The position numbers were made by a program, and so were the translations under genes. Under the pieces are notes generated by a model, which saw nothing but the letters and a program-made list of their open reading frames with translations, searched no databases and was not told the DNA's origin. This document shows positions 2,924-10,334 of a DNA stretch of 64,000 nt, in pieces (position 1 is the stretch's first letter; the number at the start of each line of letters is the position of its first letter). Source of the DNA: Minisyncoccota bacterium. GTDB taxonomy: Bacteria; Patescibacteriota; Minisyncoccia; Phycocordibacterales; UBA1006. The DNA lies in assembly GCA_036405175.1 (NCBI GenBank), contig DASWYC010000002.1:467714-531713 (forward strand), in the 5' to 3' direction.

Positions 2924-2950
2924 TAAAAACCATCCGCAAGGGTGGTTTTT
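2924..2950 (+). terminator. rho-independent terminator
   Basis: AAAAACCA-TCC-GCAAG-GG-TGGTTTTT hairpin immediately after the stop of the 2076-2921 gene. Confidence 0.6.
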
Positions 2951-2963
2951 GTATACTATACTC

Positions 2964-3386
2964 ATGCATCACGTAGCGATTATGACAAAGTCTTGGGGAC
3001 TCATTCCCAAGATTTTAAATGGTCAAAAAACTATTGAATCACGATGGTACCAAACCAAGCGCACTCCTTGGAATAACGTTCAAGTTGGTGATACGGTATA
3101 TTTTAAAAACTCTGGTGAACGTGTTGCCGCACAGGCTACGGTTGCCAAGGTGCTCCAATTTGAAATTGCAGATCTTGCAACAGCACGTGCAATTATAAAG
3201 ACATACGGCAAAGATATATGTCTAGTTAACACTGATCCAGCTGCGTGGTCTCGGCTTCCTAAGTACTGTATTCTGATATTTCTGAGCAATCCAAAATCTA
3301 TTAAAACATTTTCTATTGATAAAACCGGCTTTGGTGCCGGTGCTGCGTGGATTACCGTTAAGAACATTTCATCAATCAAATTGTAA
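2964..3386 (+). CDS. ASCH domain protein
   Basis: ILNGQKTIESRW motif typical of the ASCH fold. Start set to ATG 2964 because TATACT at 2952-2957 lies 6 nt upstream; the ORF track starts at TTG 2949. Confidence 0.55.
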   Translation: MHHVAIMTKSWGLIPKILNGQKTIESRWYQTKRTPWNNVQVGDTVYFKNSGERVAAQATVAKVLQFEIADLATARAIIKTYGKDICLVNTDPAAWSRLPKYCILIFLSNPKSIKTFSIDKTGFGAGAAWITVKNISSIKL

Positions 3387-3478: not shown

Positions 3479-3871
3479 TTATTGTATTAAATACCTAATG
3501 CGCGATTTTATTACACCAAAGTCTCTATTGTTAAATAAATATAGCTTTCTCTGTAATCGCTTAATACTCATTAACTTCATTTGAGCCAGAATCGCAGCAA
3601 CTTTTTGGCTATCAGGGTCAATGTAGTTGAAATAAAAGTCATATTCTTTCTGTTTGGTAGTCAGTGGAATGCACCAAAACATATGATTGTTGAACTTCTT
3701 CAAGACTAGAACAGGACGCGAAAAGTCCTCTCTACTACCATGCTGTTCAAAGCCAATATTTTTACCTAGTATACTAATCCAAACCTCTCCCTCTTGAGGA
3801 AATCTTTCTACTTTCTGATCAACGCTTTCAAGATCTTTTTTAACTTTATTCCAGAGATCATACTCATTCAT
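3479..3871 (-). CDS. PemK/MazF-like toxin domain protein (orphan)
   Basis: GEVWISILGKNIGFEQHGSREDFSRPVLVL...CIPLTTKQK follows the MazF/PemK pattern (GD.v.v.f..G.EQ.G.RPaVVls...CvPiTs). TAGTAT lies 6 nt before the ATG. No antitoxin ORF on either side. Confidence 0.5.
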   Translation of the reverse strand: MNEYDLWNKVKKDLESVDQKVERFPQEGEVWISILGKNIGFEQHGSREDFSRPVLVLKKFNNHMFWCIPLTTKQKEYDFYFNYIDPDSQKVAAILAQMKLMSIKRLQRKLYLFNNRDFGVIKSRIRYLIQ

Positions 3872-3968
3872 ACAAAAATACTAACACTGGAAACCACTTT
3901 TTAAAGGGTTGTCAAAGAAACTTGTTATTCGTGCAAAGCCTTTAAAAACCACGTACAATAGATCCATC

Positions 3969-6137
3969 ATGAGTACCATTACGCCCGATCATCCGATTTC
4001 TGCTATCAACCGCCTCAGCAAACAACATGTGGAAGGGCTTAAAAAGCTCAGAATCAATAGCATAAAAGATCTACTGTATCACTTTCCTGCTCGCTATGTT
4101 TCTATTTCTGAGCTCAGTAATAGCGATAACTTTATTGATGGACAGCAGGTTTCTCTTTTGGGTGAGATTATTAAAAACGAAGCCAAAAAAACATGGACTT
4201 CAAAAGTTCCTGCATCACAAGGAACACTCAAAACCATTGATGGTAAACGTGTGTCTATGACGTGGCTTCATCAGCCGTACATTGCAAAAATGTATCCCGC
4301 CGGAACACTGGTAAAAGTTTCTGGAACATTGAAAGCTTCAGATAAAGGCGCATCGCTCTTTAATCCAGCCATAGAAAAAACAGAAGCAATGGCAATTGAT
4401 ACGCATGATAGTTTATTTGGCGAAGAAGGTGAAAGTTTTGGCGGAACACTCTATCCGGAAACACGCGGAGTCTCTTCTCAATATCTTTCTACGCTCATTA
4501 AAAAAGTGATTAGCATGCGTATTCACGAGCAGATCCCTGACCCTATTCCCGCACATGTTCGCACTAAACTAAATTTACCGCCCCTTGCAGCAGCCTTAGT
4601 ATGGATTCACCTTCCTGAAAAAAAAGAACATGCGGAGCGTGCGCGTAAGCGGTTTGCGTTTGAACAGATTTTCCTCATTCAAATTCATAACTTTTATCAA
4701 AAGAAGCATTATGAATCCAATAAATCAATTGTGGTGAATTACAACAAAAAAGCCATCCAAGCATTTACAAAAAAGCTTCCGTTTACACTCACCAAAACAC
4801 AGCAATCAATTGTTGATGGTTTGCTCACTAATATTTCAAGTGACACACCAATGTCTCGCCTTCTTGAAGGAGACGTAGGTTCAGGGAAAACTATTATTGC
4901 AGCTATTCTCAGCTTAGCAGTATTTTCTGCACGCACCCCAAGTCGTCCGCTTCAGGTTGCCTACATGGCGCCAACGGAAGTGTTAGCAAACCAACTTTTT
5001 GATACGTTTACCAAATTACTTGCTGATATTCCTATGATTTCTATTGGCCTCATGACCAGTTCTGGTTGCAAAAAGTTTCCTTCAAAAACAAGCTATCTTA
5101 AAAATAACGTGACTCAAGTTTCTGCCACACAGATTAATAAGTGGTCACAAGATGGAACACTTGGTATTTTAATTGGGACCCACTCGTTGATTGGTAAAAA
5201 GTTTACTCCAAAAGATCTAGCGTTGGTAATTATTGACGAGCAACATCGTTTTGGTATTAATCAACGTATGAAGTTGGTGCATACTAAAAATGCTGTGCCG
5301 CACTTTTTATCAATGTCTGCAACACCAATTCCTCGTACATTAGCACTCACGTTGTATGGTGATTTGGATTTGTCGGTGCTTGATGAGGTTCCGCCAGGAC
5401 GTAAGCCGGTGGTGACCAAGCTCATCCGCAATCAAGAAGAGCGTGATGCATGCTATGAACATATTAAAGCAAAACTCAAGGAAGGTCGCCAAGCGTATGT
5501 GATTTGCCCGCGTATTAATGCTGCCGATGAAGGCGATGAACGTAAGCTCCAAACAAAGTCAGTTGAATCAGAAACAGCAATGCTTCAGAAAGTTGTTGGA
5601 CCCAAATATGTAGTAGTTGGGCTCCACGGTAAGCTTTCAAAAAAACAAACTGAAGAAACCATGGAAGCATTTAATGAAGGTAAAATCCACATATTGATTG
5701 CAACATCGGTGATTGAAGTTGGTGTGAATGTTCCAAATGCGACCACTATTTTAATTGAAGGTGCAGATCGATTTGGTTTAGCGCAGCTACATCAGTTACG
5801 CGGACGCGTGATGCGTGGAAGCCATGAGCCATACTGTTTCTTAGGATTCTCAAGCACGAGTCAAAAAACCCAAGATAGATTGGGGGTATTCTTGAAAGCA
5901 AAAAATGGATTTGAATTAGCAGAACACGATTTATCTTTGCGCGGGATTGGAGAGCTTGCAGGCGGTAAGCAATGGGGTGTGAGTGATTTAGCAATGGAAG
6001 CACTCAAAAATCCTCGTCTTGTTGAATATGCACGTGAAGAAGCACGAGGTATTATTGATGACGATATGGAACTCAAAAAACATCCCGTACTTAAAGATTT
6101 ATGTATTACTAATGATGCGTTGGTTCATCTTGAATAG
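3969..6137 (+). CDS. recG: ATP-dependent DNA helicase RecG
   Basis: Walker A DVGSGKT, DEQHRFG helicase motif, N-terminal wedge/OB region; 720-740 aa. Start at ATG 3969; an alternative TTG at 3909 is possible. Confidence 0.9.
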   Translation: MSTITPDHPISAINRLSKQHVEGLKKLRINSIKDLLYHFPARYVSISELSNSDNFIDGQQVSLLGEIIKNEAKKTWTSKVPASQGTLKTIDGKRVSMTWLHQPYIAKMYPAGTLVKVSGTLKASDKGASLFNPAIEKTEAMAIDTHDSLFGEEGESFGGTLYPETRGVSSQYLSTLIKKVISMRIHEQIPDPIPAHVRTKLNLPPLAAALVWIHLPEKKEHAERARKRFAFEQIFLIQIHNFYQKKHYESNKSIVVNYNKKAIQAFTKKLPFTLTKTQQSIVDGLLTNISSDTPMSRLLEGDVGSGKTIIAAILSLAVFSARTPSRPLQVAYMAPTEVLANQLFDTFTKLLADIPMISIGLMTSSGCKKFPSKTSYLKNNVTQVSATQINKWSQDGTLGILIGTHSLIGKKFTPKDLALVIIDEQHRFGINQRMKLVHTKNAVPHFLSMSATPIPRTLALTLYGDLDLSVLDEVPPGRKPVVTKLIRNQEERDACYEHIKAKLKEGRQAYVICPRINAADEGDERKLQTKSVESETAMLQKVVGPKYVVVGLHGKLSKKQTEETMEAFNEGKIHILIATSVIEVGVNVPNATTILIEGADRFGLAQLHQLRGRVMRGSHEPYCFLGFSSTSQKTQDRLGVFLKAKNGFELAEHDLSLRGIGELAGGKQWGVSDLAMEALKNPRLVEYAREEARGIIDDDMELKKHPVLKDLCITNDALVHLE

Positions 6138-6139
6138 TG

Positions 6140-6640
6140 CTAGTTTTCTATTTTATAAATATCTTCTGGATTAAAAACACATATCTCACTCCAGCCTTTG
6201 GGTCGCCCTTTAATAATTTGTTCTTTTCTAAATATTGTTCTTATTTCATCTTCTTTTTCATCATTCCAAATCATAGTCCCATCATATCCTTGAGATATCA
6301 GTTCTTCCTTCATACCGTGGAGTTTGTTTACATCTTCAACTGAAGGATTTTTAAGAATGAGAGGGTTTTTAAGATTGAGGTACGCGGAATATTTATTCTT
6401 TCCGTATGAGTAATCCTCATCAGAATCAGTAAAGTAAATACCTGATCCAAAGAATCCCGCATCACCTTCGTAATTTTTACCTACAAACCCCAGAGAGAAT
6501 GTCTCTATCTGATCATCTGAGTAGTGATAAACCTTCAGCAGTTCACCCTGTTCATTTCTCACCTTACTGTTCGCAAATTGCTCTTCAATCGAGGATTGAT
6601 GCTCTTGTGATTCTTGAAAGTTAATTCTATCTAAATTCAT
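6140..6640 (-). CDS. PARP-like (H-Y-E class) ADP-ribosyltransferase domain candidate
   Basis: KVYHYSD (H-x-S), 24 aa later GSGIYFTDSDED (compare PARP GKGIYFAD), then SEICVF near the C-terminus (compare PARP NEYIVY catalytic Glu). The ORF-track start at 6676 overlaps the tRNA, so the start is moved to Met 6640. Confidence 0.35.
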   Translation of the reverse strand: MNLDRINFQESQEHQSSIEEQFANSKVRNEQGELLKVYHYSDDQIETFSLGFVGKNYEGDAGFFGSGIYFTDSDEDYSYGKNKYSAYLNLKNPLILKNPSVEDVNKLHGMKEELISQGYDGTMIWNDEKEDEIRTIFRKEQIIKGRPKGWSEICVFNPEDIYKIEN

Positions 6641-6645
6641 ACGTG

Positions 6646-6719
6646 TGCACGCACATGGACTCGAACCATGGGCCACCGAGGTATAAGCTCGGAGCTCTAA
6701 CCAACTGAGCTATGCGTGC
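6646..6719 (-). tRNA. tRNA-Ile (anticodon UAU)
   Basis: Canonical cloverleaf on the minus strand: acceptor GCACGCA/TGCGTGC, D-arm GCTCAGTTGGTTAGAGC, anticodon stem CCGAG/CTCGG with loop CTTATAC, T-arm CATGG-TTCGAGT-CCATG, discriminator A. No encoded CCA. Confidence 0.8.
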
Positions 6720-6767
6720 AAGGTAGCCTCATTTTACTACCTTTCCCTTCTTTTGAACACTGGCCAA

Positions 6768-8426
6768 TTAATAGGTTCTCTTCCCTTCAAGAAGATCTTC
6801 TTGAGAATATCCAAGCGCCTTAAGTGCATCGCTCGTAGTCACAAAGAACATATTATTATTCTTCATATACTCATAAATTTCAGATTTAGCGAGCACCGCC
6901 ATTACGCTGCTATGCGCGCTTGAACATACAACATGAACACCTTGTGATTCCAACTGCTTAACAATATCGCCAAATGCTCGCAGGCCATCAAGATCAATCA
7001 ATGCCAATTCGCGCAAACGTAACACTACATTCTTTGCATGCGGTACGCGAGACATAATACGCTCAACATGTTCATCCGCATTAATATAAATGAGTGACCC
7101 CTTAAATGAATACACCGTTGTATCTGATTCTGTGATGTGTGAAATTTCTGCATCATCATACGCTCTACATGTAAGGGTATGCTGCTCGTTGTTAGTAGTC
7201 ACCTCAAATTGAGCTTTGGCCATGTTACGTACCAAAATCAAAAGTGCAATCACAACACCAATCATCAGTCCGACAATAGTATCGATAGCAAACATGAGCA
7301 CGGCAACCCCCATTGCAATAATGAAGTCTCGTTTGCTCTTCTCATACAGATATTTAATCTCATGTACTTCAACCATTTTAATCGCCGCATACATAAGAAT
7401 TCCCGCAACGACACAGAGTGGAATATAGATAAATACTTTAAACAATAAGAGCCCAATTGCTGCAACAAAGATTGCATTCAATACTTGTGAGGTTTTATGA
7501 GTTGCCCCTGACTTAATATTGAGACCGGTTCGTACGAACACTCCGGTTGCCGGCAAACCTCCAAAAATTCCTGATGCAACGTTTGCGATTGAAAGCCCCA
7601 ACAATTCTTTGCGAGAATTAAACTTGGTATTAGTTGCGAGATCTCCAATCTTTGCAGAAATGAGTGTTTCCAAAATAGCAATGAATGCAACTGAAATTGA
7701 GGTAACAATGATGTGTTTTGAAACAGCAAATTGTGGGAATACAGCAAGCTTAAGTGGCTCGTTACCAAACTTATCAAGGAGCGTCACAAAATCAAGCGGA
7801 ATCATCTGCATATGAGACAAATATCCAAGCAAAATTCCAATTGGTGCTACGATTACTACTCCAGGGACTTTCTTTACATATTTCACGAGCAAGAAAAGTG
7901 CTGCAGTGGTAATAATCGTGATCATGAGCGCGGGAAGATACGTCATATCTACGTGCTTGAAGACTTCGATTACATTTTGGATAAACTCTTCATGTTTAGG
8001 AATGCTACCGATCTGGAGGGCATTTTGGAGCTGTCCAGCACCAATAATGAGCCCTACTCCTAGTGAAAATCCATACATGATGGTTTTTGGAATCAACACC
8101 AAGTATTGCTCCAGTTTAAAGAAGTATGCAACGAGCACAAAAAGTCCCGTAAAGAGTGCCACCATTGGCAAGAGCGCTGGCCCAGCACCAAGTGCAAATG
8201 CTGCTAAGACTCCCGAAAGTGCTCCGGCTGGCCCAACGATGTTATAGTTGCTGCCGCCAAAAAAACCGGCCATAAGACCGGCCCATACGGCGGTGATGAT
8301 TCCCATCATCGGTGTTGCGCCCGATGCAACTCCCAAAGAAATTGAAAGTGGTAATGAAATAAGTGCGACTGAAAGTCCAGCGCGCCAATTTTCTTGGAGT
8401 CGTTTAAAAAGCTGTGTCGTGGTCAT
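6768..8426 (-). CDS. SulP family inorganic anion transporter with C-terminal STAS domain
   Basis: 552 aa, multiple TM segments (GVASGATPMMGIITAVWAGL...) and a C-terminal STAS-like domain. Confidence 0.85.
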   Translation of the reverse strand: MTTTQLFKRLQENWRAGLSVALISLPLSISLGVASGATPMMGIITAVWAGLMAGFFGGSNYNIVGPAGALSGVLAAFALGAGPALLPMVALFTGLFVLVAYFFKLEQYLVLIPKTIMYGFSLGVGLIIGAGQLQNALQIGSIPKHEEFIQNVIEVFKHVDMTYLPALMITIITTAALFLLVKYVKKVPGVVIVAPIGILLGYLSHMQMIPLDFVTLLDKFGNEPLKLAVFPQFAVSKHIIVTSISVAFIAILETLISAKIGDLATNTKFNSRKELLGLSIANVASGIFGGLPATGVFVRTGLNIKSGATHKTSQVLNAIFVAAIGLLLFKVFIYIPLCVVAGILMYAAIKMVEVHEIKYLYEKSKRDFIIAMGVAVLMFAIDTIVGLMIGVVIALLILVRNMAKAQFEVTTNNEQHTLTCRAYDDAEISHITESDTTVYSFKGSLIYINADEHVERIMSRVPHAKNVVLRLRELALIDLDGLRAFGDIVKQLESQGVHVVCSSAHSSVMAVLAKSEIYEYMKNNNMFFVTTSDALKALGYSQEDLLEGKRTY

Positions 8427-8480: not shown

Positions 8481-10334
8481 TTATTCAACCTTTTTAAACA
8501 CAATACCGTGTTGAGAAAGCAGTGCTTCATACTCTTCTTGTTCAAGCGTTTCTTTATCAAGAAGTTCATTGGCAATAATATCAAGAAGATTTTTATTTTC
8601 TTTCACGAGTTTTTCTGCTCGAGCTAAGGCGTCAGTAATAATACGCGTCACTTCTGCATCAATAGTTTGAAGAGTTTTTTCTGCATACGCAGTTTGAGTA
8701 CGATCTGCATAAATTGAATGAGAATTCACTACTTCATATGCAACCGGCCCGAGCGTATCGCTCATTCCAAAACGTGACACCATAGCACGAGCAACATTGG
8801 TTACGTTTTCAAGATCACCCGACGGTCCTGTGCTTACATCACCAAATACAAGTTTTTCTGTTACGTATCCTCCGAGTGTCATAGTAATATCATCAAAGTA
8901 CTCAGCGCGAGTACGGAGCTTCTTTTCTTCAAGGGGAAGCTTCATGGTGTAACCACCTGCATTTCCACGCTGCACAATTGATACGCGGTGCACCGGATCC
9001 GCATCAGGAAGGAGCGTTGCTAACAGTGCATGCCCTGCTTCATGGTACGCAACTAATTTACGCTCATGTTCTGTGTGCAAGTGATTAAGACGTTCTGGCC
9101 CAATCAATACTTTATCTACTGATGACAAAATATCTTCAAGAGAAATGGTTGATGATTCTCTACGCGCTGCTTTAATGGCAGCTTCATTCATGAGTGACTC
9201 AAGATCAGCTCCGGAAAATCCTGATGTTCTGCGCGCCACCACTGCAAGATCAATTCCTTCTTCAAGCGGCTTATTCTTTGCATGAATTTCCAAAATATCT
9301 TTGCGATCTTTTCTGTCAGGTACATCCAAAAATACTCTGCGGTCAAAACGCCCCGGACGCAACAATGCTGGATCGAGTACATCTTCTCGGTTGGTAGCAG
9401 CAATAACTACCAGCTTTTCTTTTGGCTCAAAGCCATCCATTTCTACCAGAATTTGATTGAGGGTTTGTTCACGCTCATCATTTCCTCCTCCAATCCCAAC
9501 TCCGCGGGAACGTCCTACGGCATCAATCTCATCAATAAAAATAATTGCCGGAGCAGTTTTACGAGCCATATCAAAAAGATCACGTACGCGAGATGCTCCA
9601 ACTCCCACAAACATTTCAACAAATTCTGATCCAGACAAATGGAAGAATGCAACCCCAGCTTCTCCTGCCACCGCACGAGCAAGCAGGGTCTTTCCGGTTC
9701 CCGGTGAACCTACGAGCAAGACTCCCTTGGGAATCTTTGCACCAACTTTAAAAAACTTTTCTGGTGTTTTTAAAAACTCAACAACTTCTCTGAGTTCATT
9801 CTTTGCGGTTTTGTTTCCTGCAACTTCGTTAAAAGTAACTTTTTTATCTTTCTCTCCGGCAAGCTTTGCTTTGCTTTGTCCAAATGAGAATGCCTTCATG
9901 GCACCTCCACCACCCTGCATGCTTTTGCTAAGGAACCACATAATCAGCAGGAACAAAATAATTGGTGAAAAGAGTGGCAAAATACGTAGCAATGTATTAC
10001 CAAACGTCTTTTGGCTTTTTACGGTAATATCAAGCTTGCTGAGCTGCTCTGGAGTTACAGCAAAGCGTGAAATAGTTTCTGTAAATGAAGTGTTTGCCTC
10101 CTTGGTGGCACGCTGTTCTTCTTTGCCGACAGTAAGCACAATGTCTTCACCATTAATTTCAATCTTACTTACTTTATCTTCTTTAATAAGGGTTGCAACT
10201 TCTGCCAAAGAAAGACGCTCAGGCTTAGCGAACATACTTCCTCGGTTGACAATAAGGGTAATAACGAGCGAAATAACCACTGCCCAACCAATGTAAATAA
10301 TAAGATCGAGCGCATTGCTATTTTTCTTTTTCAT
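8481..10334 (-). CDS. ftsH: ATP-dependent zinc metalloprotease FtsH
   Basis: N-terminal TM, AAA+ Walker [24 protein letters not shown], Zn-binding HEAGHAL. TATACT lies 7 nt upstream of the ATG. Confidence 0.95.

Follow-up and report, generated by a model that had tools for sequence, protein, structure and literature searches.

We studied a stretch of 64,000 nucleotides from a Minisyncoccota bacterium (contig DASWYC010000002.1; hereafter, the window) and, within it, an open reading frame (ORF) located at positions 6140 to 6640 that starts a few nucleotides past the 3' end of a tRNA-Ile gene. This ORF probably codes for a cytoplasmic, stand-alone, NAD+-dependent ADP-ribosyltransferase (ART) of the ART-PolyVal family and would be a mobile accessory gene, most likely co-transcribed with the tRNA. 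An earlier note, made from the sequence, had given the same coordinates for the ORF, which we confirm with the correction that it lies on the minus strand, and had described its product as a PARP-like enzyme with an H-Y-E catalytic triad. The ART fold and the His and Tyr positions of that description stand, while the family is ART-PolyVal, in which the Glu is found in only 32% of the domains.

The ORF runs from an ATG at 6640-6638 to a TAG stop codon at 6142-6140 and encodes 166 amino acids (aa), as does the NCBI gene call for the identical protein (P0001), which is annotated as hypothetical protein VGE63_02635 on a 668-kb contig of a "Candidatus Paceibacterota" metagenome-assembled genome. 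Four more assemblies contain exactly the same protein with the same surroundings. The ATG at 6640 is the sole canonical start upstream of the conserved residues 22 to 27, and in the alignment all homologues begin within a few residues of it. A longer ORF with a GTG start (6676) begins within the tRNA, and was discarded since the homologue alignment gives it no support. The protein has a single domain, shows neither a signal peptide nor a hydrophobic segment on direct reading of the sequence, and is set among housekeeping genes: ftsH (10334 to 8481), sulP (8426 to 6768) and tRNA-Ile upstream on the same strand, and recG downstream, convergent, with its stop codon 2 nucleotides (nt) from that of the ART gene. 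The features to which we refer below are as follows.

6140..6640, minus strand: coding sequence of the predicted stand-alone ART-PolyVal ADP-ribosyltransferase, 166 aa (ORF, PF18760, AlphaFold, PARP-fold matches, BFVD, P0001)
6524..6526, minus strand: codon of His39, VYH motif, strand 1, predicted NAD-binding His (conservation, PARP alignment)
6434..6436, minus strand: codon of Tyr69, G-x-G-I-Y-F, strand 2 (conservation, PARP alignment)
6404-6406, minus strand: codon of Tyr79, in the next helix after the Tyr69 strand (aligned to PARP1 Y907)
6281..6283, minus strand: codon of Asp120, GYDG (family conservation, PARP10 alignment, PMC5512222)
6199..6256, minus strand: clade-specific insertion, approximately residues 129 to 148, a beta-hairpin in the model (family alignment, AlphaFold model)
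6185..6187, minus strand: codon of Glu152, SEICVF, putative PARP third-triad position (extended hhalign)
6641..6645, minus strand: spacer CACGT, separating tRNA discriminator and ATG (sequence)
6646..6719, minus strand: tRNA-Ile(UAU) (ARAGORN, Rfam)
6720..6767, minus strand: sulP-tRNA spacer with an 8-bp hairpin (sequence and fold)
3909..6137, plus strand: recG, convergent, edge of the variable slot (ORF, Pfam, comparison with locus L020)

Family and predicted fold

Among Pfam families, PF18760 (ART-PolyVal) was the only one matched at an E value of <=10 (E = 4.7e-12; 47.3 bits against a gathering cutoff of 31.2 bits), with residues 29 to 164 aligned to positions 1 to 133 of the 140 in the profile. 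At the same threshold, there was no match to the Pfam families PARP and Arr-ms or to any other ART family, and NCBIfam gave no match to the protein. We also obtained a match to PHROG 21376 (E = 3.9e-11), which fell on an internal stretch of a profile of 1664 positions. By sequence profile, the assignment is thus to ART-PolyVal and not to PARP proper. This domain was defined in polyvalent proteins of phages and conjugative elements (PMC5512222), and an exhaustive hidden Markov model search of 1.8 billion representatives retrieved 3533 relatives of the PF18760 family, of which the best were nearly all giant proteins of 1000 to 7000 aa with several ART stretches. Given that the precomputed Pfam annotation already recognizes the ART domain, the protein itself is only modestly novel.

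A model built by AlphaFold from 59 sequences had a predicted local distance difference test score (pLDDT) of 88.8 and a predicted template modeling (TM) score (pTM) of 0.80. When it was compared with the PDB using Foldseek, the 50 best matches were all catalytic domains of PARP1/2/3/4 or tankyrase, with E values from 4e-4, a probability of ca. 1 and TM scores of 0.35 to 0.47 on the query. Among predicted viral structures (BFVD), the best matches were annotated PolyVal ARTs (E = 8e-10), including a few solo phage proteins of 149 to 225 aa. A sequence search of the PDB with the family profile gave weak PARP matches over the H–Y region (E values of 0.5 to 2). Profile search and structure prediction, two of the checks that the earlier note had proposed, therefore both led to an ART, the former with a score above the gathering cutoff. 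Together, profile and model show an intact ART-PolyVal member with a predicted PARP/diphtheria-toxin-like fold and the corresponding type of NAD+ site.

Candidate catalytic residues

The three motifs on which the earlier note was based, KVYHYSD (residues 36 to 42), GSGIYFTD (65 to 72) and SEICVF (151 to 156), occur in the order that it gave, and the PF18760 match and 14 close homologues rule out a chance resemblance. The interval of 24 residues that it reported needs correction, as GSGIYFTD begins 22 residues past the end of KVYHYSD; H39 and Y69 span 30 residues. To place these residues within the PARP framework, the family profile was aligned with hhalign to the catalytic domains of PARP1 and PARP10, whose sequences had been checked against the PDB (PARP1, 100% to 6m3i_B; PARP10, identical over 188 residues to 9frp_A). 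In the core of the PARP10 alignment (86.7% probability; E = 4.4e-6), H39 corresponded to H887 and Y69 to Y919, while with PARP1, H39 was aligned to H862, Y69 to Y896 and Y79 to Y907, the Y79 column at lower confidence. In the greedily extended alignments, all runs agreed in placing E152 at the third triad position, which is E988 in PARP1 and I987 in PARP10, and D120 at D976 of the PARP10 "RYDS" motif. In these alignments, the His, Tyr-Tyr and Glu of the protein are collinear with those of the PARPs, the Glu at lower confidence.

We then measured conservation in 740 domains extracted from 222 proteins of the family. His39 was conserved in 97% (698 family domains), and position 69 was Y, F, W or H in 97% (Y in 62% and F, W or H in a further 34%). 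Pro93 (94%) and Gly121 (92%) were also well conserved. Asp120, within the GYDG motif, was overlooked in the earlier note and is a D in 637 of 661 family domains (96%). Position 152, besides the 32% of Glu already mentioned, was occupied by V, S, Q, T or I, a variability reminiscent of the split between H-Y-E and H-Y-I/L enzymes among the PARPs. In the 14 close solo homologues, every motif residue was kept, and H39, Y69, Y79, D120 and E152 were all invariant.

In the model, H39 lies in strand 37-41, Y69 in strand 68-71 and D120 immediately before the fifth strand (121-126). The authors who described the family characterized ART-PolyVal as H-Y-D, with the "D in strand 5" (PMC5512222); given its location, D120 is very probably that residue. 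The catalytic acid could be either D120, invariant in the family, or E152, at the putative position of the PARP Glu, and both are present here. Since H39, Y69, D120 and E152 are invariant in the solo clade, we predict an active protein whichever of the two acids is the catalytic one. His39, Tyr69 and Tyr79 would hold NAD+ as they do in PARPs, and Asp120 or Glu152 would promote ADP-ribose transfer to a macromolecule.

The solo clade is further marked by YH[YF]S replacing YHGT, by an Asp at position 160 replacing a Gln conserved at 91%, and by an insertion of ca. 20 residues (129 to 148) that separates the strands carrying the two acids and forms a beta-hairpin (model strands 132-136 and 139-143). 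The columns of this insertion were filled in less than one-third of 753 family domains, and in ca. 6% at its center, and its position is where PARPs carry acceptor-site loops. Within the ORF, we also observed an 18-nt tandem repeat (89% identical) at 6344-6379, minus-strand codons 88 to 99, which encodes LNLKNP-LILKNP; the hexapeptide duplication is kept in all close homologues and must therefore be old.

The protein might instead be degenerate or act other than as a transferase to macromolecules, that is, as an NAD+ glycohydrolase, as a binder of NAD or ADP-ribose, or as a small-molecule ART like Arr. Arr, which modifies rifampin, is a stand-alone H-Y-D enzyme of ca. 140 to 150 aa, and the protein studied here is also small (166 aa) and solitary; its target is not inferable, and the Glu position is often nonacidic within the family. 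However, the five residues discussed above are all intact and do not vary within the solo clade, Arr-ms and other ART families were not matched in Pfam, and the top structural matches were PARPs and phage PolyVal ARTs, the latter being predicted modifiers of macromolecules (PMC5512222). We consider such a function highly unlikely and infer from the sequence that the enzyme uses NAD+ to ADP-ribosylate a macromolecule.

Junction with the tRNA gene and expression

The tRNA-Ile gene, with anticodon UAU, is located on the minus strand at 6646..6719 according to Rfam (RF00005, 70.7 bits) or at 6645..6719 according to ARAGORN. The gap between the discriminator and the ATG of the ART gene, which the earlier note had counted as 6 nt, is thus 5 nt (CACGT) with the Rfam boundary and 4 nt with that of ARAGORN. 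The tRNA gene does not encode the CCA, and the 5-nt spacer leaves no room for a promoter, a terminator or a ribosome-binding site.

To put this junction into context, we examined gene starts throughout the window. Shine-Dalgarno-like motifs were found at only 6 of 61, while a TA[TC]A[ACT]T hexamer ending exactly 6 to 7 nt before the start codon preceded 11 of the 45 genes starting with ATG, compared with ca. 0.15 expected from the background frequency of the hexamer (examples are the ATGs at 10334, 11008, 13795, 18067, 19145, 37249, 43990, 47813 and 48687). This placement looks like the geometry of leaderless mRNAs, and the host genome would be largely leaderless. No such hexamer was found in the 40 nt before the ATG of the ART gene, and a consensus promoter scan detected no promoter or terminator site at 6641-6719. 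The homologues at loci L001 and L052 (see below) do carry a -10 box (gcTATAATggtaaatATG; TTAAAATtgtgttATG), which is missing from the window gene because the tRNA fills that space. Upstream of the tRNA, the 48-nt spacer that separates it from sulP contains an 8-bp hairpin (AAGGTAGT...GCTACCTT) with TAAAAT in the loop and may hold a promoter or a processing structure for a tRNA-ART transcript; a weaker promoter-like site is found inside sulP (6883-6855). The predicted RNA fold of the tRNA-ORF junction was no more stable than that of shuffled sequence (z = −1.0).

Given the 5-nt gap and the lack of a promoter box, the ART gene is most likely transcribed together with the tRNA. A single transcript containing tRNA-Ile and the ART ORF would start in the sulP-tRNA spacer or further upstream. 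For tRNAs lacking an encoded CCA, cleavage by RNase Z takes place after the discriminator and leaves a 5'-phosphate on the trailer. Processing of this type would generate the 5' end of the ART mRNA, beginning CACGU-AUG, and the near-leaderless messenger would be produced in an organism for which the translation of leaderless mRNAs appears to be routine. The co-transcription suggested by the earlier note is well supported by the anatomy of the locus and, together with the 5'-end processing, is inferred from it. The searchable literature contained nothing on leaderless translation in bacteria of the candidate phyla radiation (CPR), and no bacterial precedent for leaderless mRNAs generated by tRNA processing or tRNA punctuation.

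Alternatively, the ART gene could have a transcription start of its own inside the tRNA gene, or be barely expressed, its closeness to the tRNA reflecting mere compaction. CPR genomes are very compact, the TTATAC of the anticodon loop weakly resembles the TATACT box of this genome, and most homologues are found elsewhere with a promoter-like box of their own. Against this, the upstream region lacks the hexamer that 11 of 45 genes have, the promoter scan was empty across the tRNA, and the arrangement recurs at a tRNA-Ser in locus L058, with a 16-nt gap. For these reasons, an independent start seems unlikely to us, and we favor the joint transcript.

At the other end of the gene, the junction with recG (6135-6142) contains no intergenic terminator; the two stop codons are only 2 nt apart, so an overlap of the convergent transcripts is unavoidable. 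On the ART strand, the nearest hairpin resembling a terminator is found ca. 255 nt inside recG (5869-5884).

A variable slot between tRNA-Ile and recG

We searched one genome per GTDB species for tRNA-Ile(UAU) and found it at 23 species loci (L013 to L035), almost all labeled Patescibacteria/CPR or unclassified. The ART ORF was present in none of the 23, although ftsH, tRNA-Ile(UAU) and recG were neighbors in many of them. Many CPR lineages have conserved a tRNA-Ile whose UAU anticodon is encoded in the genome, with an orientation that varies among loci.

The closest relative (L020), whose RecG and SulP were 82% and 81% identical to those of the window, has the same recG boundary (for the window, Pfam recognized RecG domains in the recG product of the sequence-identical locus). 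Its slot (3762-4280) contains a gene of the HIT family (PF01230, E = 3e-25) and, between this gene and recG, a bidirectional terminator hairpin; no DNA similarity was detected between this segment and the ART segment beyond the tRNA and recG. In other lineages, the slot carried sigma-factor or two-component genes, or nothing. Since the content of the slot varies among relatives, the ART gene is its lineage-specific occupant in the genome studied here. The presence/absence comparison that the earlier note had called for thus agrees with its suggestion of a horizontal insertion, as do the flanking duplications at two other sites described below. GTG-started ORFs abutting tRNA-Ile in L016 and L032 were of low complexity and judged spurious.

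Stand-alone relatives and putative insertion scars

Approximately 15 stand-alone relatives (159 to 177 aa, 49 to 65% identical to the window protein) were spread over ca. 10 different neighborhoods. A source name was available for two of them, both CPR bacteria, e.g., Giovannonibacteria. The metagenome scan yielded only 12 loci, of which 4 were close. A phage origin was considered and rejected: tblastn of the protein against 50,697 phage records gave no match, and IMG/VR gave only 2 distant ones, with no close phage relative found. The neighborhoods were as follows.

L001-L006: ART 60 nt after 5S rRNA; RelB/YafQ next
L058: ART 16 nt after tRNA-Ser(UGA), overlapping the ruvX start; tRNA-binding-domain gene next
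L008: ART ca. 0.9 kb after tRNA-Ser(GCU)
L057: ART after a HigB-like/helix-turn-helix (HTH) pair, 0.5 kb before 23S rRNA
L011, L042, L054: ART flanked by an ABC-F ATPase and a convergent DEAD-box helicase; three related species
P0003 contig: ART after a Fic gene
L052: ART after a class-I aminoacyl-tRNA synthetase
L059: ART after an AAA/DUF4143 ATPase
L007: ART after HTH genes

In 3 of the ca. 10 independent contexts, the ART gene starts no more than 60 nt past the 3' end of a stable-RNA gene that has the same orientation; under the rough assumption that ca. 5% of genes are so placed, the binomial chance is ca. 0.01, which is suggestive. Immediate neighbors related to RNA or translation amounted to ca. 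9 of 20, against roughly a quarter expected by our own estimate. The locus L058 (2024-2985) provides a second solo ART starting close (16 nt) to a tRNA, with its stop codon overlapping the start of ruvX.

At two of these loci, the surroundings of the gene are duplicated. At L001, a 52-nt stretch from the 3' end of 5S (5904-5955) is repeated downstream of the ART gene as two segments, 24 nt at 100% identity and 32 nt at 97% (6504-6527 and 6624-6655). The downstream copy is split by a 96-nt insert that contains a hairpin and is flanked by a 4-nt AGTA duplication. In L052, a segment of 53 nt comprising the stop codon and terminator hairpin of the upstream gene is repeated at 91% identity (3899-3951 and 4508-4560). 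In both cases, the repeats enclose the ART gene and a short upstream region including the promoter, and they were present in every independent assembly of those loci. They look like the scar left by the insertion of a unit of ca. 0.6 kb, inside which there is no recombinase. On these grounds, we propose that the solo ART is an accessory, lineage-specific gene that moves as a single-gene unit.

A more specific picture would be a self-contained CPR cassette of ca. 0.6 kb that has repeatedly landed 3' of stable-RNA or other genes (tRNA-Ile at 5 nt, tRNA-Ser at 16 nt, 5S at 60 nt with the 52-nt duplication, and a tRNA-synthetase gene with the 53-nt duplication) and that is expressed at tRNA sites in a manner resembling tRNA punctuation. 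We put this forward only tentatively and regard it as rather doubtful.

Several observations weigh against an active, mobile and tRNA-linked ART and have to be set beside the evidence presented so far. Within 5600-6800 of the window, we found no repeat of the tRNA 3' end and no insertion scar, and there is no integrase within ±8 kb of the ART gene. The GC content at third codon positions (GC3) was 0.305, within the range of the host (0.326 ± 0.027); despite a low overall GC content (0.347 versus 0.403 ± 0.025), composition was consequently discarded as a sign of recent transfer. In the L020 slot, an ATG is found 1 nt past the tRNA discriminator, and a GTG start 34 to 40 nt downstream is equally plausible; in-frame GTGs there give a more typical HIT N terminus, so the abutting start in that genome is uncertain and is not relied on. 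The column that pairs E152 with the PARP Glu lies where the hhalign alignment was greedily extended and confidence is low. Finally, no biochemically characterized ART-PolyVal/PF18760 member was found in the searchable literature, and both activity and target are predictions.

Other features of these neighborhoods deserve mention. In one CPR lineage (L011, L042, L054 and also the P0003 contig), the ART gene keeps its place between the ABC-F and DEAD-box genes over several species; at L042, an HTH_17 and Fic/Doc pair is inserted beside it. In the Giovannonibacteria locus L001 (857-5941), the 23S rRNA gene is split by two LAGLIDADG homing-endonuclease ORFs, and the end of the 23S gene is ca. 1.5 kb from the 5S gene; such introns typically occur in the rRNA genes of CPR bacteria. 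In L008, the ART gene is flanked by 104-aa ORFs that matched no Pfam family. A functional tie to the convergent helicase was rejected, as the gene in the window is RecG and the one in L011, L042 and L054 is an unrelated DEAD-box helicase of ca. 405 aa; tblastn with RecG gave no match in these three loci. In the window, a PemK/MazF-like toxin ORF (PF02452, 26 bits) is located at 3479-3871 on the minus strand, just upstream of recG, with no antitoxin identified there, and adjoins an ASCH-domain ORF at 2949-3386 on the plus strand.

Possible targets and the toxin alternative

The authors who described the family predicted protein targets, by analogy with Alt of phage T4 (PMC5512222), while DNA or mRNA can also be the target of ARTs in this broad clade (PMC11618068). 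RNA is a possible class of target for the solo ART. The neighbors (tRNAs, rRNAs, aminoacyl-tRNA synthetase, ABC-F, DEAD-box helicase, and RuvX with a tRNA-binding protein) give a weak hint of an RNA or translation-apparatus target, a proposal that we consider less likely than the cassette picture itself.

The gene might also have arrived at a tRNA site as the toxin gene of a toxin-antitoxin (TA) or antiphage system, its product, comparable to DarT or CmdT, poisoning DNA, RNA or protein by ADP-ribosylation once triggered, in line with the toxin/defense-type gene contemplated by the earlier note. The H-Y-[EDQ] clade to which it belongs includes DarT and CmdT (PMC11618068), and ART-PolyVal has been grouped with Tox-ART-HYD2 toxins (PMC5512222). 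Its homologues are often found beside TA modules (RelB/YafQ, ParE/Phd, HigB-like/HTH, Fic), the window has the PemK-like gene at 3479-3871, and the slot in which the ART gene is found, next to a tRNA, is variable. However, PADLOC gave no match at an E value of <=10, and the neighbors in the window are the tRNA and recG, with no candidate antitoxin, macrodomain or chaperone adjoining. No partner gene was conserved over the ca. 10 contexts, and the TA pairs nearby are complete without the ART. The window contains neither an integrase nor an att-like repeat, and one lineage keeps the gene at the ABC-F/DEAD-box position over several species, as in stable, tolerated inheritance. Without antitoxin, macrodomain, chaperone, conserved partner or PADLOC match, a role as toxin or in defense is possible but unsupported, and we judge it improbable.

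Comparison with known systems

The window gene adds a stand-alone, chromosomal member to the known ART-PolyVal family. With the domains of polyvalent proteins, it shares the series of motifs VYH, GxGxYF, YLxxxNP, GYDG and F-x-P-x-x-I, but it stands alone on a CPR chromosome and is not a domain of an injected effector of 1000 to 7000 aa. Within the family, the solo clade differs by D160, by the invariant Glu at the putative PARP-Glu position and by the insertion of ca. 20 residues. The solo ART-PolyVal-like proteins of Dickeya phage JA11, Yersinia phage fHe-Yen9-03 and Salmonella phage Mutine (149 to 225 aa) have the same predicted fold and a single domain (Foldseek E values of 4e-7 to 3e-5), but they are phage encoded and only 17 to 19% identical.

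With PARP catalytic domains (the mono-ART PARP10, PARP1/2 and tankyrase), the protein shares the ART fold and the collinear His, Tyr-Tyr and "YD" positions, to which the alignments add, at lower confidence, the third-triad position. The spacing is similar (H to Y, 30 residues versus 32 to 34; Y to E, 83 versus 92). Identity is ca. 15%, and both the helical regulatory domain and the acceptor-loop region are missing; poly-ADP-ribosylation is not expected. DarT and CmdT, small bacterial enzymes of the same broad ART clade with nucleic acid targets, illustrate that ARTs need not modify proteins (PMC11618068). They are always paired (with the DarG macrodomain, and with CmdA and a SecB-like chaperone, respectively), unlike the window ART, which has no partner.

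Cotranscripts of tRNA and mRNA are known from the "tRNA punctuation" of animal mitochondria and from the thrU-tyrU-glyT-thrT-tufB operon of Escherichia coli. As in these, the predicted mRNA lies directly 3' of a tRNA, and its near-leaderless form would resemble mitochondrial mRNAs; the difference is that we are dealing with a single predicted junction on a bacterial chromosome with an accessory gene downstream. With tRNA-site integrative islands, the locus shares the polymorphism of content at the site, while the integrase and the tRNA 3' repeat were not found in the window.

The more unusual leads of this analysis are the promoterless start abutting a tRNA in a leaderless-looking genome and the single-gene scars at other loci, both of which are deduced from sequence. 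Neither the catalytic lead nor that of tRNA processing alters current understanding unless confirmed experimentally. ART-PolyVal is among the commonest enzymatic domains of giant phage and plasmid effectors, and a solo version of 166 residues with all the candidate catalytic residues would be a convenient route to the target and the catalytic acid of the family. Likewise, a promoterless ART gene abutting a tRNA is a concrete candidate for the formation of bacterial mRNA 5' ends by tRNA processing.

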